A stretch of 63,192 bases of DNA, the filler included, from Nemertoderma westbladi (Eukaryota > Animalia > Xenacoelomorpha), in assembly GCA_032718475.1 (NCBI GenBank). It is 3 parts of 3 records of this genome, joined end to end, with 100 filler letters (N's around TTAATTAATTAA, not from the genome) between each part and the next. Parts side by side here need not be neighbours in the genome. Positions count along the whole stretch, not along the records: positions 26,690 to 55,318 come from JAUCBJ010008977.1; 2 more parts are not named here. The stretch is one strand, 5' to 3'. The position numbers and the translations under genes are program-made. Positions 2,655 through 52,073 of this stretch are shown piece after piece (the stretch's first letter is position 1; each line of letters opens with the position of its first letter). The notes below the pieces were generated by a model. It ran no database searches. It had not been told where the DNA came from and saw nothing but the letters and a program-made list of their open reading frames with translations.

Positions 2655-2784
2655 GTTTGATTGTACAGTCGAATGCCTACTGCTATATTACAGTTAAAGC
2701 AAGTCTAGTAATTCAGTATCACTGTTAGCCTAGTAATTAATTACCGATACTGCTACTCAGTGTAGCGTGATATATATATAATAT

Positions 2785-29817: not shown

Positions 29818-30072
29818 TTAGGTAACTTTTATTTTAATTTCAATGCTTTCAAATGGACCTATTTCCTTTTCCTTCGAGGGTTTCTCAGGATTTAGCCCCA
29901 TTTCCTTTTCCTTGTAGGGTTTCCAATAAGTTTTTCCCCACGTTCCAGTTAAATCCGCCCCTGGCTCGCAATACCAGTACATCCTAAACCTGCGATCGTA
30001 CCACCATGGTCCATTTTCACTACATACTTGAAACTGGTCGACCACACTCCTATCCGCAAAGAAATAGAACAT
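29818..30072 (-). other. Trp/Tyr-rich 84 aa ORF or exon in repeat X (copies at 33615-33869 and 43676-43930)
   Basis: Open in all three copies; more GC-rich than flanks; no family recognised. Confidence 0.3.
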
Positions 30073-30335
30073 TTTATTTATACCTTTATTATATTAATTA
30101 AATGAATATTTAGTGAATTTATTTTTCTCACATCTATTCGGACCTATTATTATTGGGTTAATTTAATTGCCACACAATGTAAGTAATTTAAGTATTCTCT
30201 ATTAAAAATAAAAACATGACTACTAAGGAAAAACACAGTAATCTTTTGTTGTAAAAAAAGTGCATAATGTTTTGTTTTTGTAGATATCACCGCGACAACC
30301 ATAGAACAGTTTCAGGTCCACAGGCCCTGTAAAGT

Positions 30336-31257
30336 TGTACGCGCTTTTGAAGACCTTTAGCAGTTTAACCCGCCAAAATTTATATGTCTTTTGGTTTATA
30401 AATAGACTTTAGAAGTTGACATATATTTAATACCAATAAACACAACATTAGCAGAAGCCAGCCTAGTGCGCGTCCATTCACCCGCTGGATATACCCGGGA
30501 GACTGGATTCTGAGGGCTTAGATTATTATTGCAGTGTAAGCTTACTGTATTATTCGATTGATCGTTAATAAATAATTTCTGACTAATATTATTCACTTTC
30601 GGGAAATATTAACAGTTCCTTTAGGACGTGGCGCTCTATCTAGGTAAACAGAGATATGACTTATACTAATCACAACGGTAAATCGGTAAGGCTTATGATT
30701 CACGTATGAGGCGCATTCTTTAGGAAATGCTTAGTTATCAATCACAATCAGGCACACTACCGGTAACACACAATACTGCTCACTATTTTGCCGACCGTCA
30801 ATGAATTTTATCATATATAAAGAGAACAGCAACGGACTCATGTAGTGCTTATCAAATAGCATTAAATTCACTACAAACCACAATAATATAAGTCGCAATC
30901 GCTATATATAACCCGTCTCTCTAACCTGTAGTGTATCAAGAAAATTGGGAAATTTGGGTTCTTTATAAATATTCTCCAAATAATATTCAACCAAACAACA
31001 GTAAATAGCAGTATAATAATGTATGTTGAACCGATAATGTAAGACTGAATTGAGATAAGTTGATATGTTATGCACTGATAACAGTTATACGCTCTATAAT
31101 TTAAGCCTACTAATGTTTCTTCTAAAGTATGAAAACGAGTTGACTCTAGAGCCGGTGTTCCTGGCCTAGATAGAAACAACACAACAGTATCAAGAAAAAA
31201 CAGTAAGACTGAACACTCCTAGCACGATCGGCCGAAAGCTCCACATCGACAGAAAAA
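30336..31257 (-). mobile_element. 5'-truncated LTR (3' end intact)
   Basis: tgtacgcgcttttgaagacc at 30336; reverse complement of 56362-57232; homology to the 5489-6722 LTR ends at 31257. Confidence 0.9.
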
Positions 31258-32066
31258 CGGAATGTAAGGAGCATGAGGCGAGAGAGGAAAAGGAACGCAA
31301 GGAGCGTGGGGCAAGACGGCGGGAGGAAGTTAGGAGAGTGGCAGAGTTGGCCAAACAGAGCGAACGGGAGTGTAGGGAGAGAATAGCAAAGGAGGAGTGT
31401 GAGCGAAAAGAATTAAAGAGACGCCAAAGTGAGCTTGCGGAGCATAGGATTAGGCGCACGCGCGAGCTGCGACTGGTGCGGGCGGGGGCGTCTGAGAGCG
31501 GGACTGGCTCGAGTATTTTAGGGGAGCCAGGGGCCGTGGATACATTTATTAATACCCCACTTACAGGGACCGCACGACAGACCCAAAACTGGTGTGACCG
31601 TACGGGCGGGGGGGGTAATAATGATAATGGTACAGTAGACGTGGTTAATATTAATAGTACCGTATGGGACAATTCTAACCAAACCTTCATTGCAGCAAAT
31701 AATACTTTACCTAGTAGCGGTAATTTAAATTTAAATACAAATAATAATTTCAATTTGAACGTGCAAAATAATCCGAATAGTAATTTAGATTTAGAGAATA
31801 ATAATAATTCAAATAATTTAAATAATGATCTAAGCCCGAATTTACAAAATAATTCAAATGATTTTGTTTCAAACGAACAAATTAATTCCGTTTCCGATAT
31901 GGGTGTTATTAACGTAAACACGTCGGGCGTGTATAGCCAGACAGACGGGGGCCTGGTAGGTCGTACAGTTGGCGGGCCGGAAGTAGCTGGGTTAGATAGA
32001 CCCAGCGAGGGCCTGGTAGGCCACGTAGTTGGTAGGCAGGAAGTAGCTGGATTAGGTAGACCCAGC
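31258..32066 (+). pseudogene. Duplicated BEL/Pao gag fragment cut off by the 84 bp satellite
   Basis: Nearly identical to 35055-35863. Confidence 0.85.
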
Positions 32067-33116
32067 AGTTAGTAGTTATATGTACCTAGAATGTTTAATT
32101 TACATATCCGAAACACCAACAAAGTAAACTAACTTTAATGACTGGACTGCAGTTAGTAGTTATATGTACCTAGAATGTTTAATTTACATATCCGAAACAC
32201 CAACAAAGTAAACTAACTTTAATGACTGGACTGCAGTTAGTAGTTATATGTACCTAGGATGTTTAATTTACATATCCGAAACACCAACAAAGTAAACTAA
32301 CTTTAATGACTGGACTGCAGTTAGTAGTTATATGTACCTAGGATGTTTAATTTACATATCCGAAACACCAACAAAGTAAACTAACTTTAATGACTGGACT
32401 GCAGTTAGTAGTTATATGTACCTAGAATGTTTAATATACATATCCGAAACACCAACAAAGTAAACTAACTTTAATGACTGGACTGCAGTTAGTAGTTATA
32501 TGTACCTAGGATGTTTAATTTACATATCCGAAACACCAACAAAGTAAACTAACTTTAATGACTGGACTGCAGTTAGTAGTTATATGTACCTAGGATGTTT
32601 AATTTACATATCCGAAACACCAACAAAGTAAACTAACTTTAATGACTGGACTGCAGTTAGTAGTTATATGTACCTAGAATGTTTAATATACATATCCGAA
32701 ACACCAACAAAGTAAACTAACTTTAATGACTGGACTGCAGTTAGTAGTTATATGTACCTAGAATGTTTAATTTACATATCCGAAACACCAACAAAGTAAA
32801 CTAACTTTAATGACTGGACTGCAGTTAGTAGTTATATGTACCTAGGATGTTTAATTTACATATCCGAAACACCAACAAAGTAAACTAACTTTAATGACTG
32901 GACTGCAGTTAGTAGTTATATGTACCTAGAATGTTTAATTTACATATCCGAAACACCAACAAAGTAAACTAACTTTAATGACTGGACTGCAGTTAGTAGT
33001 TATATGTACCTAGAATGTTTAATTTACATATCCGAAACACCAACAAAGTAAACTAACTTTAATGACTGGACTGCAGTTAGTAGTTAGTTATATGTACCTA
33101 GAATGTTTAATATACA
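32067..33116. repeat. 84 bp tandem satellite, 12 full units plus a partial
   Basis: agttagtagttatatgtacctagaatg...actggactgc recurs at 32067, 32151, 32235 ... 33075. Confidence 0.97.
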
Positions 33117-34132
33117 GCTCGTCGCCTATTTACCGAGTGAACGCAGTGAGCGTTGATTGGTCAATAAAATAGATATTTAATTATTAGTAACATTAATTAT
33201 GGAAAGACAGGAAGAAATATTCCTTAATTAAAGTAAAAGTCTTATAAAAGGAATCAATCCCGTTAATATAGTAGAACTACTTACTGTACTGATGATATAA
33301 TATCCACTACTCTGATGGTCTTTTATATTATTCAATGGCAACACGTAAAAAATAATTAAAATTGGTTACTTTTATAATTTATTAAATTAATAAATAAGTT
33401 ACATTACGTAAAATACCAGATAAAATTTTCACAGATTTGTTGCGTTTTGAAATAAAGTTTGTAGTAGATAAATTATTACAGGTTATTTATCTTGAGCGAA
33501 ACATGAATCCAATCAGCATATGATGACTAGATACAAATATAGTTTCGTTATCTTGGCCTTCTCAGTAAGGTAAGTATTTCCGCTTCTACGTATTGTTTCA
33601 ATTTCAGTAACAAGTTAGGTAACTTTTATTTTAATTTCAATGCTTTCAAATGGACCTATTTCCTTTTCCTTCGAGGGTTTCTCAGGATTTAGCCCCATTT
33701 CCTTTTCCTTGTAGGGTTTCCAATAAGTTTTTCCCCACGTTCCAGTTAAATCCGCCCCTGGCTCGCAATACCAGTACATCCTAAACCTGCGATCGTACCA
33801 CCATGGTCCATTTTCACTACATACTTGAAACTGGTCGACCACACTCCTATCCGCAAAGAAATAGAACATTTTATTTATACCTTTATTATATTAATTAAAT
33901 GAATATTTAGTGAATTTATTTTTCTCACATCTATTCGGACCTATTATTATTGGGTTAATTTAATTGCCACACAATGTAAGTAATTTAAGTATTCTCTATT
34001 AAAAATAAAAACATGACTACTAAGGAAAAACACAGTAATCTTTTGTTGTAAAAAAAGTGCATAATGTTTTGTTTTTGTAGATATCACCGCGACAACCATA
34101 GAACAGTTTCAGGTCCACAGGCCCTGTAAAGT

Positions 34133-35054
34133 TGTACGCGCTTTTGAAGACCTTTAGCAGTTTAACCCGCCAAAATTTATATGTCTTTTGGTTTATAAAT
34201 AGACTTTAGAAGTTGACATATATTTAATACCAATAAACACAACATTAGCAAAAGCCAGCCTAGTGCGCGTCCATTCACCCGCTGGATATACCCGGGAGAC
34301 TGGATTCTGAGGGCTTAGATTATTATTGCAGTGTAAGCTTACTGTATTATTCGATTGATCGTTAATAAATAATTTCTGACTAATATTATTCACTTTCGGG
34401 AAATATTAACAGTTCCTTTAGGACGTGGCGCTCTATCTAGGTAAACAGAGATATGACTTATACTAATCACAACGGTAAATCGGTAAGGCTTATGATTCAC
34501 GTATGAGGCGCATTCTTTAGGAAATGCTTAGTTATCAATCACAATCAGGCACACTACCGGTAACACACAATACTGCTCACTATTTTGCCGACCGTCAATG
34601 AATTTTATCATATATAAAGAGAACAGCAACGGACTCATGTAGTGCTTATCAAATAGCATTAAATTCACTACAAACCACAATAATATAAGTCGCAATCGCT
34701 ATATATAACCCGTCTCTCTAACCTGTAGTGTATCAAGAAAATTGGGAAATTTGGGTTCTTTATAAATATTCTCCAAATAATATTCAACCAAACAACAGTA
34801 AATAGCAGTATAATAATGTATGTTGAACCGATAATGTAAGACTGAATTGAGATAAGTTGATATGTTATGCACTGATAACAGTTATACGCTCTATAATTTA
34901 AGCCTACTAATGTTTCTTCTAAAGTATGAAAACGAGTTGACTCTAGAGCCGGTGTTCCTGGCCTAGATAGAAACAACACAACAGTATCAAGAAAAAACAG
35001 TAAGACTGAACACTCCTAGCACGATCGGCCGAAAGCTCCACATCGACAGAAAAA
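34133..35054 (-). mobile_element. 5'-truncated LTR, second copy
   Basis: Same as 30336-31257 at offset 3797. Confidence 0.9.
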
Positions 35055-35134
35055 CGGAATGTAAGGAGCATGAGGCGAGAGAGGAAAAGGAACGCAAGGA
35101 GCGTGGGGCAAGACGGCGGGAGGAAGTTAGGAGA

Positions 35135-36976
35135 GTGGCAGAGTTGGCCAAACAGAGCGAACGGGAGTGTAGGGAGAGAATAGCAAAGGAGGAGTGTGAG
35201 CGAAAAGAATTAAAGAGATGCCAAAGTGAGCTTGCGGAGCATAGGATTAGGCGCACGCGCGAGCTGCGACTGGTGCGGGCGGGGGCGTCTGAGAGCGGGA
35301 CTGGCTCGAGTATTTTAGGGGAGCCAGGGGCCGTGGATACATTTATTAATACCCCACTTACAGGGACCGCACGACAGACCCAAAACTGGTGTGACCGTAC
35401 GGGCGGGGGGGGTAATAATGATAATGGTACAGTAGACGTGGTTAATATTAATAGTACCGTATGGGACAATTCTAACCAAACCTTCATTGCAGCAAATAAT
35501 ACTTTACCTAGTAGCGGTAATTTAAATTTAAATACAAATAATAATTTCAATTTGAACGTGCAAAATAATCCGAATAGTAATTTAGATTTAGAGAATAATA
35601 ATAATTCAAATAATTTAAATAATGATCTAAGCCCGAATTTACAAAATAATTCAAATGATTTTGTTTCAAACGAACAAATTAATTCCGTTTCCGATATGGG
35701 TGTTATTAACGTAAACACGTCGGGCGTGTATAGCCAGACAGACGGGGGCCTGGTAGGTCGTACAGTTGGCGGGCCGGAAGTAGCTGGGTTAGATAGACCC
35801 AGCGAGGGCCTGGTAGGCCACGTAGTTGGTAGGCAGGAAGTAGCTGGATTAGGTAGACCCAGCGAGGGCCTGGTAGGCCACGTAGTTGGTAGGCAGGGAG
35901 TGGCTGGGTTGAATAGACCCAGCGAGGGCCTGGTAGGCCACGTAATAGCAGAGGGAAAGGCGGGGGTGAATAGACCCGACCGCGGTAGGGTTGATGTGTC
36001 GACTAGAGAGGGATATAGTAGAGGGGTGAGAGATAGCGAAGTTAGATGTGGCGAGTGGGGGGGGGGGCTACAGGGGCCCCACAACAGCGAGTTAGCGGCG
36101 AAAGGGGGGGGGGCAGAGAGTGTCCCACAGCCATCAGCGGATAATGCGCGGGCCGAGATAGGTAAACCGCAACACCCGGCGACGGAAAGTAATAGGGGGA
36201 TTGCGAGTATCCCCAGCGGCGTGCGACCGAGCAGAGAGAGACAGGTTGACGTCGTAAGAGGGCGGACGAAGCGTCGAGCCCGATCAGAAGAGGGAAGAAG
36301 AACAGTGGGGTTTAACCGGGAGGTCGACGAGAGATCTCACGAGCGGGAATACTCCACTGAAAGGAGAAGAAGAGAAGACAGTAGTAGAGGTATCGCCGCG
36401 AACGATAGAAGAGCGAGGACGGATAGCGAGCCGTCGGTAGTTGAGATGAGAACGGAGAGTCAGTGGGGTCGGACTCCGGGAGATTGCCGTCGCCCCGGAG
36501 AGATGCGACCCGGCGAGGCGCACTACGCGCCGATGGAGGGGTACGCGATGTACCGGTACGAAGATGAGAACAGTAGAGGGGGGGGTCGAAGAGAAACTTT
36601 CCGACGGAATACACCTATCGATCGAGAATACGGTAGCCACGGGGAGGACTATTCAAGAAGAATAAACTTCGATCCCGAGCGACACATGCAGACTGTAGGA
36701 CATACTGTAGGCCTTACTGCACATACCATAGGCCATACTGAGAGAGGCAATGTAGGGGATAGGATAGCGCGGGCAACGGGATTAAACCCGGAAGTCGCGG
36801 AATACATACCGACGAGTAGGCCAGAAGTTGATAGGCCTATACCGGTACCAGTACAGCAGTATGACTACAGCATGCAGGGACATAACATATACCCAGGGGA
36901 GGGGGGAATTATTGCGGATAGGTGTATGGGCCCCAACATATTAACATACCAAACATACAAAACAAACATACATTAA
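35135..36976 (+). CDS. Gag N-terminal low-complexity region (coiled coil, Asn-rich tract, 20 aa repeats, R/G/E-rich)
   Basis: 613 aa frame directly upstream of the gag core; true start lost at the 35054 junction. Confidence 0.7.
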   Translation: MAELAKQSERECRERIAKEECERKELKRCQSELAEHRIRRTRELRLVRAGASESGTGSSILGEPGAVDTFINTPLTGTARQTQNWCDRTGGGGNNDNGTVDVVNINSTVWDNSNQTFIAANNTLPSSGNLNLNTNNNFNLNVQNNPNSNLDLENNNNSNNLNNDLSPNLQNNSNDFVSNEQINSVSDMGVINVNTSGVYSQTDGGLVGRTVGGPEVAGLDRPSEGLVGHVVGRQEVAGLGRPSEGLVGHVVGRQGVAGLNRPSEGLVGHVIAEGKAGVNRPDRGRVDVSTREGYSRGVRDSEVRCGEWGGGLQGPHNSELAAKGGGAESVPQPSADNARAEIGKPQHPATESNRGIASIPSGVRPSRERQVDVVRGRTKRRARSEEGRRTVGFNREVDERSHEREYSTERRRREDSSRGIAANDRRARTDSEPSVVEMRTESQWGRTPGDCRRPGEMRPGEAHYAPMEGYAMYRYEDENSRGGGRRETFRRNTPIDREYGSHGEDYSRRINFDPERHMQTVGHTVGLTAHTIGHTERGNVGDRIARATGLNPEVAEYIPTSRPEVDRPIPVPVQQYDYSMQGHNIYPGEGGIIADRCMGPNILTYQTYKTNIH

Positions 36977-36992
36977 CGTACCAAACATACCG

Positions 36993-38165
36993 GTGGGGGG
37001 GGGACAGGGTGACATTCCCCCATCACAATATCAACAATATACCCCGATAGGAGCAAGAACAACGAGACCATTGGATGAGAACAGGTCGTGTGATACAGAT
37101 ATATGGAGGGGGCCGCTACCCCCGATGAAATACCCAAGTCAGAGAAAGTCAAGGAATAGGACGGACGAACCGTACCAGACAGGAGAAACTACACAACATC
37201 CATCGAACCCATTGGAAGCACAGGCGATGGGGATGGCCACGTTGATCGATGCGTTGAAAACGAGGATCGAGCTACCACCCGTGGAACCATTCAAATTCGA
37301 TGGGAGCAGGCCGGAAGAATATCTACAGTTTCGGCGCATGCATAGTAACGAAATACTAACGAAAAACTTGACGCAGGCGGAGTGCCTAAAGTATCTGCAA
37401 GTATACACGGGAGGCCCAGCATACGATATCGTGAGGCAATATCAAGGAATAGAGGGCGGCTTCACGACAGCATGGCGGGCACTGGATAGGGAATACGGGC
37501 ACCCGGCCAAGATCATCAGGCAGACGCTGAGAGGCATAACATCGGGTGGCCTACAGGATAATCCCGTTAGCATTAAGACGTTCGCTAACAAAGTCGAAAA
37601 GGCGCTAATCGTGCTGAAGACGCTAGACGCGCCATATGAGCTCAATGCGTCCAATAACATCACCACGATAGCGCAGGCACTACCAAACTGGCTGCGCAAC
37701 AAGTGGAGGAAGATCGCTTTCTCCACTCGAGATAAGAAGGGTGCGGAACCGGGCTTAGAAGAAATGTCAAACTTCTTAAACTACGAGGCTGAACTAATAA
37801 CTGACCCAGTCTATAGTGAAGATAGCCTGGGAAAGGGACCGAAGACAGACTACCATAGACCGAAACCGGAGCACAATACATCAAACGCATTACCGAGACT
37901 CAGGCAATCATTGCCATATGCAGCGACGCAGGGGACTGCAAGTCCACAGCTAGCCGAAGATAAGACAACACCATGGAACGGACAGGGAAACAATAACAAC
38001 ACGAACAAACATAACCCCAGTACGTCCACTAGGCCGAATCCAAACAATAAGAATAGTAGGGACTTTGGTACGAACACAGCTGCGATACGCAATGCACTGT
38101 ATAAAGAGGGCTACGACCCAAAGAGCAAATGCAGCTACACGCAAATGCGCTTCATCAAACCATGA
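36993..38165 (+). CDS. BEL/Pao gag core (DUF1759-like)
   Basis: LPPVEPFKFDGSRPEEYLQF...LKYLQVYTGGPA...AWRALDREYGHP...LPNWLRNKW...FLNYEA...DPVY. Confidence 0.85.
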   Translation: MGGGQGDIPPSQYQQYTPIGARTTRPLDENRSCDTDIWRGPLPPMKYPSQRKSRNRTDEPYQTGETTQHPSNPLEAQAMGMATLIDALKTRIELPPVEPFKFDGSRPEEYLQFRRMHSNEILTKNLTQAECLKYLQVYTGGPAYDIVRQYQGIEGGFTTAWRALDREYGHPAKIIRQTLRGITSGGLQDNPVSIKTFANKVEKALIVLKTLDAPYELNASNNITTIAQALPNWLRNKWRKIAFSTRDKKGAEPGLEEMSNFLNYEAELITDPVYSEDSLGKGPKTDYHRPKPEHNTSNALPRLRQSLPYAATQGTASPQLAEDKTTPWNGQGNNNNTNKHNPSTSTRPNPNNKNSRDFGTNTAAIRNALYKEGYDPKSKCSYTQMRFIKP

Positions 38166-39350
38166 ACTGCAGGTACTGGCAGGCGCTACCTAGGCAAGTT
38201 CAGATAGATTATGCGTCGAGCAATAAAATCTGCTCGCGATGTGTGATGAGTGGGCATAGAGCAAGGGAATGCAAGGAGAAGCCGATCAAGTTTGGTCAAA
38301 GGAGAGGCCAAACGATGGCAACAAGCACAGTAGGGGCGAAGAAGAGAGGAACGGTGTTACTTGGAGTAGTACCCGTGCGAGTGATTGGGGAAGGCAATCG
38401 ATCAGTAACAACACTAATGCTGGTTGATAGTGGAGCTGCCTTCACATTAGTCGAGGAATGGGTGGCCGAAGAGATAGGATTGAGAACGAGGCCAAGCAGA
38501 ATGGCGGTAACAACCATCTCTAGCAAAGATGAGATCCTGGAGATGAGAACAGGACGGTGCGCAATTGCAGCAGTGGCACCAGGATGCGACTATGGGGCAA
38601 CCATCGACCCCATCCAAGTGATAGAGTCAATTAATATCAATGCCAGGCGGCCAACCAACATCGAGGTCGAGCAGCATAAATTCCTGGACGACATTGACTT
38701 CTCAATCCCAGACGTGGACGTTAGGAAGGTATCCATCATAGTAGGGATGGACTGCCCAATGGCCCACGAAAGAATGCAAACGGTCTTCGGCGAAGACAAG
38801 CAGTGTGACCCGGTGGCGATATTAACACCATTCGGGTGGACGCTGAGTGGTCCAATCAAGAGTAAGACACCATTTAGGATGTCGGAGACATCAGGATGCA
38901 TGTTCGCGGGAACAATGCAGGAGATGGGTGACGAGGGAGCAGAGGAGCAGCTTAGAAGACTGCTCAGACAGGATTTCGAGGGACTGAAAGAAACCAGGGT
39001 CAGGACATCGGTAGAAGACAAGCAGGCTTTACAAAGCATGGAGGAATCGATGACATGCAATGAGGGGCGGTGTACTATAGGAATGGTATGGAAGCTACCG
39101 AAGATACCGCTGCCCGACAATAGAGGGATGGTACTCACGAGACTCCGCAAGCTGAAACAAACACTAAAACGGAGCCCCGAGAAGAATGAGTACATCCACA
39201 GAACAATTAAGAAGTACGTCGAGAAAGGATGGGCCGTGGAGTTACCGGTCGACGAGCCGAACACGGACAGGACATATATTACCTGCCACTACACGTGGCT
39301 TTAGACCCAAAGAAAGGTAAACTACGGATGGTAGTCGACACATCGGCAAA
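38129..39350 (+). CDS. Gag zinc knuckles + BEL aspartic protease + pre-RT region and first RT residues (frameshifted, truncated)
   Basis: CSRCVMSGHRAREC; LVDSGAAFTLV; IIVGMD; TPFGWTLSGP; LPDNRGMV; frameshift to YYLPLHVALDPKKGKLRMVVDTSAK, then homology stops. Confidence 0.88.
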
Positions 39351-39368
39351 GAAGATCACTTCAGGGAG

Positions 39369-40877
39369 ATGCACGAACAGCGGCTGGTCGGGACCTACGG
39401 GACGCCGTCGCTGGACAACGCGATCTTCCAACACTTCCACTACGTGGTGAAAGGGGACGAGGCGAAGTTCGGGATTCCGAAGTACCCGAGGGAATCACCG
39501 AGGAAGGACTGGAAGAGATTTATAGAGTCCATCAACAGAGGAGGATATATGATCCTAGACGACGAGGGAACCGTGGAAGACGAGGCGGGTTCGAGACGAG
39601 GAACAGCGGGGTCGGCCAGGACCATACTCTTACATTTGGCCGCGCCAAATGGGGACATCTTCTTATTCGATCTAGGAACGTATGGGAAGAAGGACGGGCC
39701 GAAATTAAACCGGTTACCGAAAGCGGTACAAGTCTTGGTAAGAGAGAAGTCGACGACGAAAGTGGGATCGGCGATTCGCGAGGATGCGGAGAGAATCAGC
39801 GATCCGGATGCCACCAACCTCCTGGATATGCAGAAGGTCTTTATGGCTATGACGGCACCGGATGGGTTGGGGGTAGTCGAAAACACAGGCCAATGCGGGG
39901 CGGTGGCAATGGGCCAATTATTGGGGCTCGTGTGCCACAAACCGATGGATTGGGGGAAGTTTAGGGAAGAATACGGAGCAGAACTAGCGAACTCGCTAAA
40001 GTGGGGAGCGAGACCGGGAAAGCAGGAGGTATATCAATTCCGCAGGGGAGCGATAAAGGTACTTCAGAAGCGATATATCCTGCAGGAGGACTGGATGATG
40101 ATAAGTTTGCTTAACTTATTCATGACCGTGGTTATCGAGAGGGAACCAGGGGCATTTCTGTTATCGGGATCACCCCTAAGCTACAGGAGAGCCTTTAAAG
40201 TGGCCTTCGATGGTCTGGTAGACCACCCGGGGCTGAAGGGCGAGTCGGTGTACTACGACAGCCGGCATCTGGTAGACGGGGAGACAGATACGCCGTATCA
40301 GAGATGGGAGCAGCTAGAAACGGATAGACGAGAAGCAAAGCGACTAGAGGAAGTCGCCAGACGGGAGAGGATAGAAGCAGAGGAGAGGGAAGAGGAGGCC
40401 AGGACACAGAGTTACGGCTTCGAGGAACAGGCAGGCCTAGACGAACTTCATTGGACTTCATCAGGGAGTTCGGGGGAGTCTCTAGGGCGAGAACTGGGAT
40501 GGACGGTGGGATCACCGAAACAGTCGACGTCGGGGTTGCAAACGATGCCCATACCAGCAGGCGCCGAAGGCGACCAACCGCCAAGGAAGTTAAGGGAGTT
40601 AGAGGGATGGAGAGCTACGGGCGAGAGCCAAGGCGGGAAGGGACATAGTGGATCCATCGGGAAACCGGGGTTGGAGTCACTGCCAGAGGAGGAGGACGAC
40701 GACGACGAGTTCGGAGAGATGCCGCCCATCGAGAGGATAGGCCACTCGGACACGGACTGGGATGGCGATGGATTTCGCGGGGAGCACTATCAGGTTGGGC
40801 GAGCAACCGGGGATGGCACCACGGATAGTATTCGGGGAGACGATGCCCGAGAGGGGCGGAGAGATCGACGTAGATAG
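39369..40877 (+). CDS. DEDDy/DnaQ-like 3'-5' exonuclease (WRN-exo/EXD/RNase D-like) with coiled-coil and acidic tail
   Basis: ExoI ILDDEG (D64,E66); LLHLAAPNGDIFLFDL; LPKAVQVLVREKSTTKVGSAIREDAERI (ExoII D139); LLDMQ; ExoIII-like QKRYILQED (Y236, E240/D241). Confidence 0.75.
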   Translation: MHEQRLVGTYGTPSLDNAIFQHFHYVVKGDEAKFGIPKYPRESPRKDWKRFIESINRGGYMILDDEGTVEDEAGSRRGTAGSARTILLHLAAPNGDIFLFDLGTYGKKDGPKLNRLPKAVQVLVREKSTTKVGSAIREDAERISDPDATNLLDMQKVFMAMTAPDGLGVVENTGQCGAVAMGQLLGLVCHKPMDWGKFREEYGAELANSLKWGARPGKQEVYQFRRGAIKVLQKRYILQEDWMMISLLNLFMTVVIEREPGAFLLSGSPLSYRRAFKVAFDGLVDHPGLKGESVYYDSRHLVDGETDTPYQRWEQLETDRREAKRLEEVARRERIEAEEREEEARTQSYGFEEQAGLDELHWTSSGSSGESLGRELGWTVGSPKQSTSGLQTMPIPAGAEGDQPPRKLRELEGWRATGESQGGKGHSGSIGKPGLESLPEEEDDDDEFGEMPPIERIGHSDTDWDGDGFRGEHYQVGRATGDGTTDSIRGDDAREGRRDRRR

Positions 40878-41676
40878 AGACACCAACATGGAGAAGTTCG
40901 CCTACCAGCGACTCCACAGACTGCGGAGATCGCTTGGGACGAAAGACGAGGTGGGACGGGAGACATTGGTACTCGGCTGCGACTACTGTGGGAGACAGAC
41001 CCACCAGGAAAGGAGCTGCTTGTACCGGTTCCAGAAGGGAACCTTTTGTCTCTACTGCCGAGAGCCAAGCCACAGGATGGGGGCGTGTCCACGGTTGCAT
41101 AACCGATGTCCAAAGTGCCACTTTCGGGGACACTACGGACGCGAGTGCGACTGGATGAACGACGAGGAGAAGTTCACAAGATTCGAGGAGTGGGCCGACG
41201 TCGGGGCCATGACGCGTCAGCGCATGAAGGCCCAGGAGTTCAAGTGGGGTTTCTTCCTTATCAATCAGGAGACTCACATGGAAATCATAAAGCGGAGGCT
41301 ACCGTTTACCTACCAAGAGGTAGCAACGGCGGCGTCGTACGCCGGAGTGATGAACACGCAAAGATATTTGGACAGGTGGACGCCACAGAACCGAAGGGAG
41401 TTTAGGGATTTCTTGGTGGAGCACGTACCGCAAGCAATGAAAATGATCCTATGGGACGCCACCAGAGGGAGACAACCGGGCCACTCTGAGGGGCCACCGG
41501 CGAAGCGATATCGGGCACTAATAACACCAGCGCCCAAGGAGCCAACGACCGGGATCAGCAGGGAGGTGGCGGCGAAGGTCCGAAAGCAGAAAGCGGATCC
41601 CAGAGGAACGGTGGTAACCAAGAAACGACCCAGGGAAGAGGACGCCAGGGGGAACTATCCCCAGAGGAACAGATAG
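40762..41676 (+). CDS. Triple CCHC zinc-knuckle protein, possibly the frameshifted C-terminus of the exonuclease ORF
   Basis: CDYCGRQTHQERSC, CLYCREPSHRMGAC, CPKCHFRGHYGREC, each CX2CX4HX4C; basic C-terminus. Confidence 0.8.
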   Translation: MAMDFAGSTIRLGEQPGMAPRIVFGETMPERGGEIDVDRDTNMEKFAYQRLHRLRRSLGTKDEVGRETLVLGCDYCGRQTHQERSCLYRFQKGTFCLYCREPSHRMGACPRLHNRCPKCHFRGHYGRECDWMNDEEKFTRFEEWADVGAMTRQRMKAQEFKWGFFLINQETHMEIIKRRLPFTYQEVATAASYAGVMNTQRYLDRWTPQNRREFRDFLVEHVPQAMKMILWDATRGRQPGHSEGPPAKRYRALITPAPKEPTTGISREVAAKVRKQKADPRGTVVTKKRPREEDARGNYPQRNR

Positions 41677-42378
41677 GTTCCCAGAGTCGAGGGAGAGAGA
41701 CTGGGACTTGGACGTGGTACGCCTGGAAGGCGCTGCGTGAGACGTACGAACTATTAAGTACAAATCTAATTAATGCAAATAATCATATAAGTGCAATTTG
41801 TATGTATGTACGTAGTAATTACTAATCTACAAATATACGTTCGGAGTAAGTACTATAGTCATACAACCTTTCTCAATTAGCTACTGGGACTGGGGGATAA
41901 CTGACTATGGCACTATGGACGAGACACCAGACAATTTCACACTTCTTGAGTGCGACGGCACAAGAGGGGGGGGGGGGAGATTCGTCAGGAGGAATGAGAT
42001 AGTCAAAGTGGGGTTGAGGGACAGAGTAATAGAGCGAAGTGCAAAGAGAGTGCGGACGCAATTCTAGTGTGGGGGGGGAGAATAAGAGGCTGAGTGAGGG
42101 ACGAGGAGGTTCGAGTGTATGAGAGAGTTAGGATGAGAGTGAAGAAGAGATAGGGCGGAAGTGTTGGGGAAACAAAAGTTGCGTGAGAGGTGAGCGCGAT
42201 CGGCCCGACATGAGACGCCAGGCACACAGGGTAGCGTTATCATACCCATAGGGAGCGGCCTGGAAAGCCGGCTCCGAGAGAAAAGAATTCCACCCCACAC
42301 CCGATACTAGATCGGGATCCAGCGGGATTGTAGCGCACTTTTTTGGTTGATGCTATCTTCTTACCGGGAAGATAGCAT

Positions 42379-42387
42379 GGGGGGGAG
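42379..42387 (+). other. Polypurine tract
   Basis: GGGGGGGAG directly before TGTTAGC. Confidence 0.7.
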
Positions 42388-43208
42388 TGTTAGCTTATTC
42401 AATCCCGCTAACACCCCATAAAGTTAAGCCGATAAGCAATATTGGGAGCCATGAGATTGGGTAATCAACCAACTCGTGCCACCCCAATAAGAATGGGAAG
42501 GAGAAGCACACAATGAGGGTCAGGGGCCAAACCCCTAACCCAGAGAGAACAGGTGGAGTGAACGGGAACACTCCAAAGGGCGCCAACAAGGGTATCAACC
42601 AATCAGAGGGGGGAAAGGCATCGATTAGGTAGAGTAACAAGGCCAACCGTGCAATATAGCCACTTGGCAGTAATCATATCAGTTCAGTTATCTCAGTGCA
42701 ATACTGGTGCTAGTTTAGGTTAGATAGTTTAGCTAGGGAAGGACCGGGACTTTAGTTACCGTATCCCGCCTTCCGTGTACAACAATCTATATCTATATCT
42801 CTATACCGATCATTATATACAACGAACGACACGAACCCATTTACTCTTCACACACGGCGGGGACGCGTGAACTAACAACGGATAAACCGGGATCCCTCCT
42901 GGATCCCGTCACAACATTATTTAGAGCGCCACGTCCTAAAGGAACTGTTTATATTTCCCGAAAGTGAATAATATTTGTCAGAGATTATATATTACGATCA
43001 GTCGAATAATACAGTAGGCCTACACCGCAATAAGGTTAGGCTTCCGAATCCAGTCTCCCGGGTATATCCAGCGGGTGAATGGTCGCGCATAGACTGGCTT
43101 CGGCTAATGTAGTGTATCAAATACTCGTCATAGGCTAAAGTCGATTTATTATCTAGAAGACATCCAAATTTGGCAGGTTAAACTGCTAAAGGTCTGAAAG
43201 CGCGAACA
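42388..43208 (+). mobile_element. 3' LTR of the BEL/Pao element (821 bp)
   Basis: Starts TGT after the PPT; ends AAAGCGCGAACA; right boundary confirmed by empty sites gcagtg|agcgttg at 29352 and 33149; last ~290 bp shared with the other LTRs. Confidence 0.8.
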
Positions 43209-44317
43209 AGCGTTGATTGGTCAATAAAATAGATATTTAATTATTAGTAACATTAATTATGGAAAGACAGGAAGAAATATTCCTTAATTAAAGTAAAAGT
43301 CTTATAAAAGGAATCAATCCCGTTAATATAGTTGAACTACTTACTGTACTGATGATATAATATCCACTACTCTGATGGTCTTTTATATTATTCAATGGCA
43401 ACACGTAAAAAATAATTAAAATTGGTTACTTTTATAATTTATTAAATCAATAATAAAGTTACATTACGTAAAATACCAGCTAAAATTTTCACAGATTTGT
43501 TGCGTTTTGAAATAAAGTTTCTAGTAGATTAAATTATTACAGGTTATTTATCTTGAGCGAAACATGAATCCAATCAGCATATGATTACTACATACAAATA
43601 TAGTTTCGTAATGTTGGCCTTCTCAGTAAGGTAAGTATTTCCGCTTCTACGTATTGTTTCAATTTCAGTAACAAGTTAGGTAACTTTTATTTTAATTTCA
43701 ATGCTTTCAAATGGACCTATTTCCTTTTCCTTCGAGGGTTTCTCAGGATTTGGCCCCATTTCCTTTTCCTTGTAGGGTTTCCAATAAGTTTTTCCCCACG
43801 TTCCAGTTAAATCCGCCCCTGGCTCGCAATACCAGTACATCCTAAAGCTGCGATCGTACCACCATGGTCCATTTTCACTACATACTTGAAACTGGTCGAC
43901 CACACTCCTATCCGCAAAGAAATAGAACATTTTATTTATACCTTTATTATATTCATTAAATGAATATTTAGTGAATTTATTTTTCTCCCATCTATTCGGA
44001 CCTATTATTATTGGGTTAATTTAATTGCCACACAATGTAAGTAATTTAAGTATTACTCTATTAAAAATAATTTCTAAAACGACTACTGAGGAAAAACACA
44101 GTAGGCCTACTCTTTTGTTGTAAAAAAAGTGCATAATTAACAGTTTCAGGTCCACAGGCCCTGTAAAGTTATTATTCTAGAACTGCATTGTCAATATAAT
44201 GTTCAAACAATCAGACTGGCACATTGAGCAGTATGCAGACAGCAGTAAGCAGTATCGTTTATGCTGGTAAGTATACTCTCTAGTTGGGGCGAGCCATTCC
44301 GTGGGCGAGCCAACTAG
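43209..44317. repeat. Third, more diverged copy of repeat X, followed by a hairpin ending CTAG|T (possible Helitron 3' end)
   Basis: 43209-44169 aligns with 33149-34132; ctagttgg...ccaactag|t at 44280-44318. Confidence 0.7.
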
Positions 44318-47300
44318 TGAGTTATATTGAGCCAAGGGTCTATCAGTATCTTTTGTGTGCCCTTGTCCATGGTAGTCCGCTACATAACCAAAACAATAAA
44401 CCTATAGTTTAGTAGTTATAGTTATGGTTAGTTTATAGTATCTATTGGAACTCAATTCGCTTCCATTGGAACTAATTTTGCCTCCATTGGAACTAAATTC
44501 GATTTACATGTATTTACATCTGATATAAATTAATTATTTGAAATCTGTTTTAGCGAAAATTAATCATTAATTAATTAGTAAGGTGAGTATCGGCCTGTTT
44601 AAACTACCCCCCCCCCCCCCCCCCCCCCCCCCCCTCAGATTCCAACTTATTTATCCAACAAGATGCAAACGATTCCCAGATACAATGCTATTAAATTAAC
44701 TGAAAATAGCAATTGATTGTTTACGTCTTAATTTAGCAAGGTGAATTTAATTTATTTGATAAATAAATGTAAAATATTAAAATATAGTAAAGAAATATCT
44801 ACAGTGTTCACAGAATAGTGTTTAAATAGAACCGTCACCGAATATTCTAAAAACGCGAAAATCGGAGTGGAGAGGAAGCGAGCAGAGTGGAGTAGGGGGG
44901 GCGGGCCGTACCTGAAATCGCGAAGGGCCTGAGCGCGTGGGCGCGAGGATTGATTCAAGGTAAGAACCCGGGCCTTAAATGTGCAGGAAATTACCACGGA
45001 CAATACCTTGGGTACTAGTGAACGGAAAGTGAAGTACCGGCGCAGCGGTAAGTCTCGTTTGCCTGACGTGAAATTCGGGCTCGGTTCAACCGTCTTCTTA
45101 AATCTTCAGCTCAGCAGCTCTCTTCATTTTTTTTTCGTTATTCTAAAACATATTACCCTGGCAACCCACACCACACCACTGCCGCGCCAAGCAACCGCAA
45201 GGGAACCACAATGCAACCATGCAACCACAATGTACTAGTGAACGGAAAGTGAAGTACCGGCGCAGTACCGGTGTTACAATTACAGTACCCTGACCCACCC
45301 CAAATAGTGGCAATACGTAAGAGACTTCGCCTACTACACACTGTACGTGGCTATCCCCACGATTGAAACATTGGAACTAAGTTCCCATGGTTACCCCCTG
45401 CGGCAGCGCACAAAGAAGCAAGGGTTTTCGAAAGGTGCCTTAATATTTATATTTTTCCACCTGGGTCTATCATTAAGAGTCACTAAGACTACATTAAGAG
45501 TCATTAAGACTACATATATAAATTGCGTGCAAAATTATTATATTAATCAATATGCTTTCCGAAATTTATAAAAAGTTTACAAAAGTATTTTATATAATTT
45601 TATATAATATAACATAACTAAATATAGAGTAATAACTGTGACACAATCCAATTAATACGCATCAACTAAATACAAAATAGTTACGAAGAAATATTCCAAA
45701 CTAATGAATAAGGTTATTTTACAATAATGATATAATTATATCAGTTGAACATCTGAGTTGGTTTCCTGTCAGCGATCCATATCTGTGTTACATATAGGAA
45801 TGTAACCCTGTGTATCCAATACAGACCCCCTGGGTTTACTGACCTAGTCTGTACTGTAACCAATCCACTGATCGCTGTAATTAAAGCTAAATATATCCCT
45901 TATAAGGATATGAATAGCTGAACTGGTGTTTTTGGGTGCGGAATGGAGTGCGATTGTCCAAACAGAGTTGATAGTTTAGTAACACGGACGGACGTACAAT
46001 GACATAGGGTTGTCGGGTAACTTTAGGGAAACCACAACCAGCCACAGTGGGACCGAGATAATTAGAATAGATTAGATAAACATATAACATTATAGTAGTT
46101 CTGAATGGGAACCAACTCCGTTACACTCATTGTAAACCAATGTTTTATTGGTTAAATAATATAACCAATGGGAACCTCTGAGTTATAATTAAAACGTTTC
46201 ATTAGTGGATGGACCAGGTTTGAGTCTACCAAAGGGACGTAGCAGATACACAGGTATTAACTCGAATACTCAATACAGACAATGTGAGATCAATTCGACA
46301 AAAAACGAATTAAAATGGAAACCAATTGAGGGAAATTTATATCATTTAGGTATTTACATCTGATATAAATTAATTATTTTAAATCTGTTTTAGCGAAAAT
46401 TGCAAAATATTAATCCCTAAGCAAAATATTAATTAAATCTTTGTTATTATTTATAATATAAATAAAGTTAGAAAATTCCCATATAAATTATCACTTAAAC
46501 CTATTTATACAACTTCTGATCTTCTCTACGGAATACTTATGATAGTTTGAGGTTACAACTTCTGAACTTCTGTCTGTCTGTATGGTTGGGTTACTTTATT
46601 TGGATGTTATTTGTTAATTTGTTACAATTAAGTTTCTCTTCTCTGATATTCCAATATTATATATATAATATTCCGCTTCTGTTTTCTTATATTCCAAATG
46701 GCATCTTGTTTGGTTCGCGATTATTCTGTAAATATAGAAATTAAATAGGTCCGGATAAAATTTTTTATGTTATTGAAACCTTTTTTATGTTATATTTTTT
46801 ATATAATATTTAATTCATTTCGAATATGCACCAAACAATACCCATCACCAACAGACAACATGCGTATTAATTGGCCAAGTAGAAAAGGGCGGGAAATTTA
46901 AAATTAGCAGTATAATAGGCCCTAGTGTTACTTAGATAAATTTCTAACTAAAACCAAATTTAGTTCTAGAGGCTTTTGTGACTCAATGTAACTCACCTTA
47001 ATATATCCAAGATTCAACTCCTTAAATAATTTGGATTATTGGTCTAGTTGGAATATAAGATATGGTGCCGACATCTCAATGTTAAATAATAATCTGTCCG
47101 AGTTGAACTGAAGTTGTTGATTTAGAATTCAAGAGGTGATACTTGTCTGGAGAATAGCAAAACGGAAAAATAATATAATGATTTCATATTAAAAATCCCT
47201 CCCAGCCCAGTGTAAAAATTGAAACTTGCATCACCAATATATATTTAAATTCGTCGTTCGCACGATTTAGTTAGTCGTTCGTACAAGTTCTTAGTAATTC

Positions 47301-49671: not shown

Positions 49672-49762
49672 GTTGAGCTAGTTGAGCAGTTGAGTTCGCT
49701 CAACCTCGTATTATGTAATCATAATAATTTATATAGTATTTTTCGCATAAAACCAAACCAAA

Positions 49763-52073
49763 CCAGTAATTAAGTTCCATTTTAGTTCCCAGGTTGGGGT
49801 TCCTAGTACAGGTGATTATTACTTACCAGTAATTAAGTTCCATTTCAGTTCCTAAATTGGGGTTCCAAGTACAGGTAATTATTACTTACCAGTAATTAAG
49901 TTCCATTTCAGTTCCCAAATTGGGGTTCCAAGTACAGGTAATTATTACTTACCAGTAATTAAGTTCCATTTCAGTTCCCAAATTGGGGTTCCAAGGACAG
50001 GTAATTATTACTTACCAGTAATTAAGTTCCATTTCAGTTCCCAAATTGGGGTTCTAAGTACAGGTAATTATTACTTACCAGTAATTAAGTTCCTTTTCAG
50101 TTCCCAAATTGGGGTTCCAAGTACAGGTAATTATTACTTACCAGTAATTAAGTTCCATTTCAGTTCCCAGGTTGGGGTTCCAAGTACAGGTAATTATTAC
50201 TTATCAGTAACTGGGCTCCATTTCAGTTCCCAAATTGGGGTTCCAAGTACAGGTAATTATTACTTACCAGTAATTAAGTTCTATTTCAGTTCCCAAATTG
50301 GGGTTCCAAGTACAGGTAATTATTACTTACCAGTAATTAAGTTCCAGTTCAGTTCCCAGGTTGGGGTTCCAAGTACAGGTAATTATTACTTACCAGTAAT
50401 TAAGTTCCATTTCAGTTCCCAGGTTTGGGTTCCAAGTACAGGTAATTATTACTTACCAGTAATTAAGTTCCATTTCAGTTCCCAGGTTTGGGTTCCAAGT
50501 ACAGGTAATTATTACTTACCAGTAATTAAGTTCCAGTTCAGTTCCCAGGTTGGGGTTCCAAGTACAGGTAATTATTACTTACCAGTAATTAAGTTCCATT
50601 TCAGTTCCCAGGTTTGGGTTCCAAGTACAGGTAATTATTACTTACCAGTAATTAAGTTCCATTTCAGTTCCCAAATTGGGGTTCTAAGTACAGGTAATTA
50701 TTACTTACCAGTAATTAAGTTCCATTTCAGTTCCCAAATTGGGGTTCCAAGTACAGGTAATTATTACTTACCAGTAATTAAGTTCCATTTCAGTTCCCAG
50801 GTTGGGGTTCCAAGTACAGGTAATTATTACTTATCAGTAACTGGGCTCCATTTCAGTTCCCAAATTGGGGTTCCAAGTACAGGTAATTATTACTTACCAG
50901 TAATTAAGTTCCATTTCAGTTCCCAAATTGGGGTTCCAAGTACAGGTAATTATTACTTACCAGTAATTAAGTTCCAGTTCAGTTCCCAGGTTGGGGTTCC
51001 AAGTACAGGTAATTATTACTTACCAGTAATTAAGTTCCATTTCAGTTCCCAGGTTGGGGTTCCAAGTACAGGTAATTATTACTTATCAGTAACTGGGCTC
51101 CATTTCAGTTCCCAAATTGGGGTTCCAAGTACAGGTAATTATTACTTACCAGTAATTAAGTTCCATTTCAGTTCCCAAATTGGGGTTCCAAGTACAGGTA
51201 ATTATTACTTACCAGTAATTAAGTTCCATTTCAGTTCCCAGGTTGGGGTTCCAAGTACAGGTAATTATTACTTATCAGTAACTGGGCTCCATTTCAGTTC
51301 CCAAATTGGGGTTCCAAGTACAGGTAATTATTACTTACCAGTAATTAAGTTCCATTTCAGTTCCCAAATTGGGGTTCCAAGTACAGGTAATTATTACTTA
51401 CCAGTAATTAAGTTCCAGTTCAGTTCCCAGGTTGGGGTTCCAAGTACAGGTAATTATTACTTACCAGTAATTAAGTTCCATTTCAGTTCCCAGGTTTGGG
51501 TTCCAAGTACAGGTAATTATTACTTACCAGTAATTAAGTTCCAGTTCAGTTCCCAGGTTGGGGTTCCAAGTACAGGTAATTATTACTTACCAGTAATTAA
51601 GTTCCATTTCAGTTCCCAGGTTTGGGTTCCAAGTACAGGTAATTATTACTTACCAGTAATTAAGTTCCATTTCAGTTCCCAAATTGGGGTTCCAAGTACA
51701 GGTAATTATTACTTACCAGTAATTAAGTTCCAGTTCAGTTCCCAGGTTGGGGTTCCAAGTACAGGTAATTATTACTTACCAGTAATTAAGTTCCATTTCA
51801 GTTCCCAAATTGGGGTTCCAAGTACAGGTAATTATTACTTACCAGTAATTAAGTTCCATTTCAGTTCCCAAATTGGGGTTCCAAGTACAGGTAATTATTA
51901 CTTACCAGTAATTAAGTTCCATTTCAGTTCCCAGGTTGGGGTTCCAAGTACAGGTAATTATTACTTACCAGTAATTAAGTTCCAGTTCAGTTCCCAGATT
52001 GGGGTTCCAAGTACAGGTAATTATTACTTACCAGTAATTAAGTTCCATTTCAGTTCCCAGATTGGGGTTCCAA
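49763..52073. repeat. 63 bp tandem satellite, ~36.7 units
   Basis: ccagtaattaagttccatttcagttcccaaattggggttccaagtacaggtaattattactta from 49763 to 52031 at exact 63 bp spacing. Confidence 0.98.

Follow-up and report, generated by a model that had tools for sequence, protein, structure and literature searches.

Does a BEL/Pao-type LTR retrotransposon of Nemertoderma westbladi carry an exonuclease-like gene and a zinc-knuckle gene of its own, and what might these do for it? The question is raised by two open reading frames, ORF-A and ORF-B, that lie between the remains of such an element and its candidate 3′ LTR, within an analysed stretch of 63,192 nt (the window). If both are genuine cargo, exonuclease cargo would extend from rotifer LTR lineages to BEL/Pao, with the addition of a second, knuckle-bearing ORF; the papers covered by a literature search showed neither a BEL/Pao carrier of a DEDDy ORF nor a separate knuckle ORF. 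What DEDDy proteins do for the transposons that carry them is, according to the literature covered, still to be demonstrated, and a family present in many copies, with two ORFs that can be taken apart, would allow a direct test of silencing suppressors against RNA adaptors and replication helpers. This value is tempered by precedent and by the dead state of the window copy.

Layout of the locus

The features are listed below, with supporting evidence in brackets.

34134..35054, + strand: 5′ part of repeat R, in place of the element's 5′ LTR (matches to other R copies)
35055..36976, + strand: candidate N-terminal part of gag, a charged, low-complexity open frame (position, purine-rich composition)
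36945..38165, + strand: BEL/Pao gag, DUF1759 (PF03564, E 1e-10; tblastn)
38105..39304, + strand: gag zinc knuckle (38231), aspartic protease and pre-RT region (PF13650, E 6.8e-6)
39277..39351, + strand: RT stub (54% identity over 26 aa to BEL/Pao polyproteins)
39369..40877, + strand: ORF-A, 502 aa, DEDDy-like 3′-5′ exonuclease domain followed by a charged, Gly-rich tail
40741..41676, + strand: ORF-B, three CX2CX4HX4C knuckles, a stretch predicted to be helical that fits no known family, and a basic tail
42200..42387, + strand: end of the 3′ non-coding region, hairpin-rich, with polypurine tract (fold z, sequence)
42388..42916, + strand: candidate 3′ LTR, 529 bp, TGTT...AACA (ends, purine tract, abuts repeat R)
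42922..43208, − strand: repeat R copy, 5′ 290 bp, inverted (77–85% matches to other R copies)

The 5′ part of the element is of BEL/Pao type, an assignment supported by its sequence matches. Its gag resembles BEL/Pao polyproteins (tblastn, E 7e-12 to 2e-13), and the capsid and nucleocapsid parts expected of such a gag are represented by DUF1759, the knuckle at 38231 and these polyprotein matches. The protease region gave three matches among 2766 candidates, all of them BEL/Pao-type polyproteins (23–24% identity). Searches for a locus with this region returned none (0/36 and 0/2). The region 35055..36976 likely encodes the N-terminal part of gag, judging from its position and purine-rich composition; it sits in an ORF (34967-36976) with no significant Pfam match. 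The 5′ end of the element has no defined boundary.

The reading frame is disrupted near 39275-39304, in the pre-RT region. The RT stub reported in the preliminary description is real. Its likeness to BEL/Pao polyproteins ends at 39351, and the three matched proteins (P0002, P0014 and P0017) continue for 924–1033 residues past that point. A contig from sequencing run X5 (taking this run as RNA is a guess) aligns up to 39352 and is followed by 108 unlike letters. BEL/Pao pol is ordered protease-RT-RNase H-integrase, of which the window copy retains no more than the protease and the 26-aa RT stub; after 39351 there is no RT core, RNase H or integrase. Because pol beyond the stub is missing, the locus is classed as a deletion derivative of BEL/Pao and not as an autonomous member. 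The copy is dead and internally deleted, without RT core, RNase H, integrase or 5′ LTR, and there are rearrangements at either end of the locus.

At the 3′ end, a polypurine tract (GGGGGGGAG, 42379-42387) lies directly before TGTT, in keeping with the tract of about 10 nt that precedes the 3′ LTR of BEL/Pao elements. Purine runs at 41962 and 42071 were rejected as polypurine tracts because neither is followed by TG. The region 42200..42387 has a fold z of -2.1 (3/200 shuffles as good), and Rfam showed no ribozyme or other family in 33000-44500, with a single match at E 0.27. BEL/Pao elements have two flanking LTRs of 0.2–1.2 kb. The preliminary description of a polypurine tract and 3′ LTR holds as regards the purine tract and the TGTT...AACA ends, but the 529-bp sequence has no second copy within the window; the LTR call rests on its ends, the preceding purine tract and the abutting repeat R. 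Read depth over the 3′ part of this LTR is not clearly above that of the internal region. The primer-binding site, complementary to tRNA-Arg or tRNA-Gly in BEL/Pao, would follow a 5′ LTR, where repeat R stands here.

Repeat R is a separate, very abundant interspersed repeat, with a read depth several-fold above that of the element; the piece at 34134..35054 has 75–90% matches at 5489-6391 and 57235-56355. Since R is found alone elsewhere and is far more abundant, its inverted pieces were rejected as terminal repeats belonging to the element. It appears that the inverted R copy (42922..43208) was the site into which the element inserted. The flanking R pieces and the loss of the 5′ LTR were absent from the preliminary description.

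ORF-A and ORF-B

The two long same-strand ORFs described previously were confirmed. ORF-A is open from stop to stop over 39321-40877 (+ strand, 518 codons; first ATG at 39369) and lies between the RT stub and the polypurine tract; the end of pol is deleted here, and in intact copies ORF-A may be a separate frame or may be fused to integrase. ORF-B (40741-41676, + strand, 311 codons) overlaps ORF-A by 137 nt and is read in the +1 frame as counted from it. When the bases of 39321-41676 were shuffled 1000 times, no ORF was as long as 518 codons, and the longest had at least 311 codons in 11 cases.

All of the exonuclease motifs that had been named for the first ORF are present at 39552-40065: ILDDEG (39552), LLHLA (39627), FLFDL (39660), TTKVG (39753), IREDAERI (39774), LLDMQ (39819) and QKRYILQEDW (40065). 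The corresponding residues are D64 (39558), E66 (39564), D139 (39783), W212 (40002), Y236 (40074) and E240 (40086). The earlier assignment to DEDDy/RNase D-like enzymes is supported by three lines of evidence. Firstly, a protein-language-model search (Atlas) placed 24 of 30 matches in one set (score 0.93; 176 shared features, recognition 2845), half of whose members (50%) carry PF01612. Secondly, a profile derived from 10 bacterial RNase D/NrnC/PolA exonucleases, a family picked after the exonuclease suggestion had been made but built without ORF-A, scored 27.1 against ORF-A and 13.1 ± 2.0 against shuffles (0/300 as good); by hmmsearch, 1/2000 shuffles was as good. The HHalign probability with this profile was 13% (E 0.002, 54 columns), which is weak in absolute terms. 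Thirdly, alignment A1, in which ORF-A needs three insertions of 8–18 residues, has four invariant columns, namely the ExoI Asp and Glu, the ExoII Asp and the ExoIII Tyr. The ExoI D-x-E (D64/E66) falls in the same register in a global HHalign, while a second alignment, to two narrow groups, missed this register; the ExoII Asp (D139) was aligned by all methods.

The ExoIII motif departs from YxxxD. Y236 is kept, but the +4 position is occupied by Glu (E240, as had been noted before) with D241 adjoining, and ORF-A is classed as DEDDy-like and not canonical because of this replacement. None of the 40 differences listed, of 911, touches the Glu codon, a weak hint that Glu at this position is family-wide. 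The embedding and profile results favour a DEDDy (RNase H-like) fold, which is predicted for ORF-A with high confidence, and activity with Glu, or the neighbouring Asp241, as the fourth metal ligand is slightly favoured. The single-sequence AlphaFold model of ORF-A has a pLDDT of 34.5, too low to be informative.

Database searches returned no relative of ORF-A. There was no Pfam match at E up to 10, no HRDC match downstream of the domain, and no relative in PHROGs, PDB sequences, NCBIfam (one E 0.11 match set aside) or plasmids (one E 2 match). Viral contigs gave 0/12 pattern matches, metagenome contigs 0/85 and the 90% protein library 0/1413 candidates. The only match in the 50% library (P0001) was rejected as a tandem-repeat protein, a 19-residue match being repeated 14 times. 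No search returned a Juno, Vesta or Athena exonuclease.

ORF-B carries the three perfect retroviral-type CCHC knuckles (CX2CX4HX4C) ascribed to it previously, starting at 40978, 41047 and 41107. Among 100,000 residue shuffles of ORF-B, nine had one knuckle and none had two or three, and across all six frames the window has just one further motif of this kind, the knuckle that the element itself has at 38231. Its likeness to retroviral nucleocapsid (best E 0.01) is at least as strong as that to the knuckles of TbRND, a trypanosome exonuclease (E 0.17–0.28). Atlas matches were under 0.9 (recognition 2195), a lead only, and the single-sequence AlphaFold model has a pLDDT of 42.6. The ATG at 40888 was rejected as a strong ORF-B start because nearly all other copies have another letter there.

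Association of the ORFs with the element

If ORF-A and ORF-B are cargo of the element, they might be expected to share its codon usage and abundance. T occupies 18/337 (5%) of their four-fold sites and 27/330 (8%) of those of gag/protease (P 0.17), compared with 141/603 (23%) in four non-element ORFs (P 5e-14 vs ORF-A and ORF-B) and 141/493 (29%) in two other repeat ORFs, a LINE-type RT (PF00078) and an unassigned ORF (P 7e-19). Read depth is very high over the element and both ORFs; at the places listed in three runs, the median over ORF-A and ORF-B is similar to that over gag/protease, with 232–1030 in the flank. Both halves of the element are present together in run X5, and pieces of ORF-A and ORF-B are also found in a run whose label names a different organism. 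The T-poor codon ends and very high read depth common with the element indicate that the two ORFs are likely long-standing cargo, and intact copies would very probably read gag-pol-ORF-A-ORF-B-LTR. The BEL/Pao cargo proposed in the preliminary description is upheld in part, as regards the BEL/Pao 5′ part and the shared bias and depth, but ORF-A behind an intact integrase or pol was not seen in any copy, contig or read of the sequencing runs examined. An intact element would measure 11 kb or more, exceeding the family range of 4.2–10 kb (PMC8742986).

The homology break at 39352 would also be explained by a chimera, in which the 5′ half comes from BEL/Pao and the 3′ half from a different LTR element, e.g., a gypsy-type element with a DEDDy ORF3, and BEL/Pao would not be the carrier. 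No 5′ LTR is present to match the 3′ LTR, integrase and ORF-A were not seen joined in any contig or read, both ends of the locus are rearranged, and the published LTR carriers of DEDDy ORFs are other lineages (PMC5408684). The unusual codon bias is nonetheless common to both halves and absent from the two other repeat ORFs, although, given the nature of these controls, an equal bias in some other LTR family is conceivable. Together with the similar depth, the joint presence in run X5 and the greater simplicity of an internal deletion, this makes a chimera distinctly improbable.

It is far less probable that the ORFs stem from a recent capture of host sequence, or are passengers with no function for the element. 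Of the 18 differences listed for the element ORFs, 15 alter an amino acid, but nearly all are private to the window copy and so fit decay after insertion. Moreover, their codon ends are like those of the element and unlike those of neighbouring genes, both frames are open over 2.3 kb, and no host-like relative occurs in the 90% or 50% protein libraries.

Possible functions and comparison with known systems

Our leading reading, which is tentative, is that of a dead BEL/Pao-lineage copy whose DEDDy-like and triple-knuckle proteins would jointly grip single-stranded RNA and trim 3′ ends, blunting host silencing or tail-marked decay. ORF-B would hold the RNA as the partner of ORF-A, and ORF-A would trim its 3′ end; the targets may be U tails added by the host, or small guide RNAs, rather than intermediates of replication. 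Under this reading the two proteins would interact and might prefer U. Knuckles boost a DEDDy nuclease on U tails in TbRND (PMC7797062), and uridylation is reported to restrict a retrotransposon (PMC6191937). This LINE-1 precedent transfers only in part, because LTR elements prime from tRNA and not from their own 3′ tail (PMC8742986). In the study by Rodriguez et al., copy number showed no clear association with ORFs of this kind (PMC5408684). A more specific version, in which a divergent BEL/Pao lineage with a split TbRND-like nuclease strips host-added U tails or degrades small guide RNAs, its own strongly U-poor RNA being spared, as a counter-defence against uridylation or piRNA silencing, is unlikely.

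The Glu at the ExoIII position, with no listed difference in its codon, and the nucleocapsid-like knuckles of ORF-B would also suit a catalytically weak or dead RNA-binding pseudo-nuclease that, with ORF-B, packages or localises element RNA. EXD1 and Maelstrom are inactive DEDD derivatives that keep RNA binding (PMC5408684), and Egalitarian, which reportedly acts as an adaptor, is a further precedent. However, ORF-A keeps three acidic ligands and the Tyr, and the Glu is a conservative change with Asp241 adjoining. The dead homologues that are known tend to lose more ligands. The rotifer transposon enzymes vary the motif too (DEED; PMC5408684). A weak or dead pseudo-nuclease is considered rather unlikely.

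An active ORF-A could instead help replication by trimming the tRNA primer, cDNA 3′ ends or mismatched RT products, with ORF-B as an extra nucleocapsid-like chaperone. Processing of 3′ ends has been proposed for ORF3 of the rotifer elements and for the DEDDy domains of Dada (PMC5408684, PMC3706591), and at 11 kb or more proofreading could pay. The genes described for other BEL/Pao elements are limited to gag, pol and, in some cases, env (PMC8742986, PMC3118150), which means that there is no general need for an exonuclease step, and ORF-A looks separate from the particle polyprotein, although its own 5′ context is lost. A replication role is judged improbable, and trimming of host-marked RNA remains the preferred reading.

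Compared with described Belpaoviridae, the element has the DUF1759 gag, knuckle, aspartic protease, RT start, short polypurine tract and 529 bp LTR-like end, but only 23–24% identity to its nearest database relatives; it has two extra ORFs, and the window copy is without RT core, RNase H, integrase, primer-binding site and 5′ LTR. ORF-A follows the host RNase D/Rrp6/WRN/EXD2/Mut-7 family (PF01612) in the order and spacing of ExoI, ExoII, pre-ExoIII Trp and ExoIII Tyr, and differs in its Glu for the last Asp, three insertions and lack of a Pfam or HRDC match. TbRND of Trypanosoma brucei likewise combines a DEDDy exonuclease with tandem CCHC knuckles acting on single-stranded RNA 3′ ends (PMC7797062; PDB 7C42/7C45). 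In that cellular protein a single chain carries the exonuclease and four knuckles, and its preference for U tails is proven (PMC7797062), whereas ORF-A and ORF-B are split over two transposon frames, are known from sequence and have no significant sequence link to it.

DEDDy accessory ORFs have been published from rotifer LTR elements and Athena/Terminons (PMC5408684, PMC6431247) and from Dada transposons (PMC3706591). In the Dada DNA transposons of Laccaria and Ectocarpus the domain lies inside the DDE transposase and, unlike ORF-A, keeps all four catalytic residues (PMC3706591). The closest parallel in position, as compared by description only, is ORF3 of the bdelloid rotifer Juno, Vesta and Athena/Terminon elements, an RNase D-like exonuclease that lies between pol and the 3′ LTR and replaces env (PMC5408684, PMC6431247), just as ORF-A lies between pol and the polypurine tract. 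The rotifer proteins also have an altered acidic motif and a likewise predicted activity (PMC5408684, PMC6431247), the motif being given as DEED (PMC5408684), while the change in ORF-A affects the fourth ligand. Unlike rotifer ORF3, ORF-A has a BEL/Pao-type carrier and is followed by a second, overlapping triple-CCHC ORF.

Two overlapping reading frames and the element that carries them

The two long ORFs, with their named motifs and three knuckles, were all found in the sequence where the preliminary description had placed them, on the strand of a BEL/Pao-lineage retrotransposon copy.

Features of the element
39321-40877 (+), ORF-A, DEDDy-like exonuclease frame; first ATG 39369, 502 aa
40741-41676 (+), ORF-B, frame with three CX2CX4HX4C knuckles; +1 frame, 137-nt overlap with ORF-A
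42388-42916, LTR-like segment TGTT...AACA; 529 bp, directly after GGGGGGGAG, abuts an inverted copy of repeat R, truncated

When the bases of the region were shuffled 1000 times, no shuffle had an ORF of at least 518 codons and 11 had one of at least 311. Shuffling the residues of ORF-B 100,000 times produced one CX2CX4HX4C motif in 9 cases and more than one in none. A codon model derived from gag and protease of this element ranked the listed frame best for both ORFs (ORF-A core, +0.19 versus -0.16 to -0.50 in the other five). The ATG of ORF-B at 40888 is a private variant of this copy; four other in-frame ATGs are found at 40762-40843. None of the 12 indels shown (of 44) lies between 39276 and 42423, so that the two-frame layout is probably common to the copies.

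The region upstream of ORF-A encodes gag, with a DUF1759 match at E 1e-10, and an aspartic protease, matched at E 6.8e-6. A protein search with longer targets gave three matches among 2766 candidates, at 23-24% identity, all with BEL/Pao-type domains (PF03564 and/or PF05380, PF18701). The polyprotein similarity crosses a frame break near 39275-39304 and ends at 39351, right after the first RT motif. Since the five comparator polyproteins that have this motif extend for 924-1033 further residues, this copy lacks the RT core, RNase H and integrase. A contig of sequencing run X5, labelled with another organism, aligned to the window up to 39352 and continued for 108 letters unlike it, presumably into RT. 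Where the element's 5′ end should be lies a piece of R (34134-35054). The copy is internally deleted and 5′-truncated, and dead. Among the differences from the runs that are shown (40 of 911), 18 lie in the stretch from gag to ORF-B. Almost all of these are confined to this copy, and 15 of the 18 alter a residue, as expected of decay after insertion.

Downstream of ORF-B, a hairpin-rich stretch (fold z -2.1) ends in GGGGGGGAG. LTR ends follow the TG...CA rule; no second copy of the LTR-like segment was found within the window. The hairpin cluster at 42241-42449 spans the PPT and the start of this segment; reads cover it several-fold more deeply than the internal region, and a contig of run X5 spans it, so it may be common to other families. 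A 60-bp in-frame repeat of three and a third copies (35746-35944) lies within the gag-like N-terminal frame.

Repeats, base composition and read depth

R is a very abundant, non-coding interspersed repeat of about 1.2-1.3 kb that starts with TGT(A/T)CGCGC and has a variable middle and a common 3′ block.

Copies of R
5489-~6720 (+)
57235-~55990 (-)
34134-35054
30336-31257
43208-42922

A stretch of flank, about 960 bp long, recurs in direct orientation to either side of the R-element-R block (33149-34133 and 43209-44170; 97% over 929 bp), far exceeding target-site duplication length. A direct duplication of 2766 bp (29301-32066 and 33098-35863; 99.9% identity) covers flank and R and reaches 0.8 kb into the gag-like frame, and is either recent or an assembly artefact; between the duplicates is an 84-bp tandem array of 12.5 copies (32065-33116). 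A 63-bp array of 36.7 copies (49762-52073) has one frame open for 742 codons. Long uninterrupted ORFs for an amidase (11029-12912), a PP2C phosphatase (60717-62105) and a CUB domain (19902-20432) suggest intron-poor genes or retrocopies. A reverse transcriptase ORF of 795 codons (24002-26386, -), probably of LINE type, adjoins an assembly gap. Three ORFs of 343-369 codons, at 14810-15916 (+), 53436-54464 (+) and 1608-2687 (-), had no Pfam match; one probably spans the membrane and has a Cys-rich tail, one is acidic with 27-bp and 84-bp repeats, and one is gag-like with coiled-coil repeats.

T occupies 18/337 four-fold degenerate sites in ORF-A and ORF-B and 27/330 in gag and protease, with 141/603 in four non-element ORFs (amidase, PP2C, CUB-domain and one unassigned) and 141/493 in two other repeat ORFs; two further ORFs, at 47% and 29% T, were counted but kept out of the pools. 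On the element strand T makes up 17% of the bases, versus 30% over the rest of the window. Median depth in runs X1, X2 and X3 was 31.5k, 26.1k and 16.0k at nine listed places in ORF-A/B and 26.1k, 14.9k and 13.0k at ten in gag/protease, compared with 232-1030 for four places in the flank. Runs X1 and X3 come from a single sample, possibly the source of the window, and X2 is from another study. Depth itself is not copy number, but the ratio still suggests that both element halves exist in tens of copies at least. Pieces of both ORFs were also present in X5, at low depth and about 89-97% identity. No copy with ORF-A after integrase was seen, so a chimera, in which a BEL/Pao half became joined with another LTR family, keeps a small probability. 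The accessory cassette is real, ameliorated and multi-copy, on a dead BEL/Pao-derived element, and BEL/Pao is its likely carrier.

Relatives of ORF-A and ORF-B

Direct searches of Pfam, PHROGs, NCBIfam, PDB sequences, protein libraries, plasmids and viral/metagenome contigs found no relatives of ORF-A, and its single-sequence structure model (pLDDT 34.5) was unusable. In the ESM Atlas, 24 of 30 matches fell in one set (score 0.93, recognition 2845, 176 features in common). Its best cluster is a 3′-5′ exonuclease in which 50% of the members carry PF01612; the three leading matches are unnamed eukaryotic clusters (0.93-0.95). A profile was made from ten bacterial RNase D, NrnC and PolA-type exonuclease domains, query left out; members include 8 of 40 listed plasmid matches, chosen for spread, and the NrnC label is presumptive. 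ORF-A scored 27.1 against it (shuffles 13.1 +/- 2.0; 0 of 300 as good) and 5.0 bits by hmmsearch (equalled by 1 of 2000 shuffles); taken absolutely, both matches are weak (HHalign probability, 13%).

The DEDDy motifs are named ExoI, ExoII and ExoIII. When ORF-A was aligned with exonucleases (alignment A1), only D64, E66, D139 and Y236 were invariant and the Trp preceding ExoIII was in register. YILQEDW of ORF-A pairs with RNase D YAAADVW, placing E240 at the last Asp and bearing out the Glu reported at the canonical Y+4 position. The ExoI and ExoIII register was lost in a second alignment, against two narrow groups. The proposed DEDDy exonuclease is DEDDy-like by Atlas, profile and A1, but not canonical. 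A DEDDy fold is judged very probable, and catalytic activity slightly more likely than not; a pseudo-nuclease acting as an RNA adaptor is somewhat unlikely. The catalytic codons are untouched in the differences shown (40 of 911), a weak hint that they are shared by other copies.

The ORF-B knuckles most resemble retroviral nucleocapsid (best E 0.01), with weaker likeness to Trypanosoma brucei RNase D (TbRND) and Lin-28; its Atlas rows are all below 0.9. The post-knuckle region is predicted, at low confidence, to be helical, and had no family match.

Proposed role and comparison with known systems

In the favoured reading, ORF-A would trim RNA 3′ ends, countering host silencing or tail-marked decay, while ORF-B would grip the RNA as its partner. 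LINE-1 is reportedly restricted by uridylation (PMC6191937), a precedent that applies on the decay side only because LTR elements do not prime from the tail. The U-poor element strand would fit this role, and RT or host mutational bias may equally explain it. That ORF-A is instead a replication helper appears quite unlikely.

The ICTV profile of BEL/Pao gives gag, pol and env only (PMC8742986), and 'exonuclease' is absent from the main text of the 2011 BEL/Pao survey (PMC3118150). Our literature search, outside subscription journals and Repbase and weak on the phrase 'BEL Pao', found no BEL/Pao exonuclease paper; that phrase matched nothing, probably because papers print the slash. Whether such cargo is new to BEL/Pao may also depend on the sequence file that supplements the survey and on the figures of the rotifer paper. 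That paper describes DEDDy ORF3s in the rotifer LTR elements Juno and Vesta and in Terminons, with activity described as undemonstrated (PMC5408684), and Dada DNA transposons are described with a DEDDy domain (PMC3706591). In TbRND, which combines DEDDy and CCHC knuckles, the knuckles greatly enhance both the binding and the cutting of U-tailed RNA (PMC7797062), and this is a biochemical precedent for the pairing of nuclease and knuckles.
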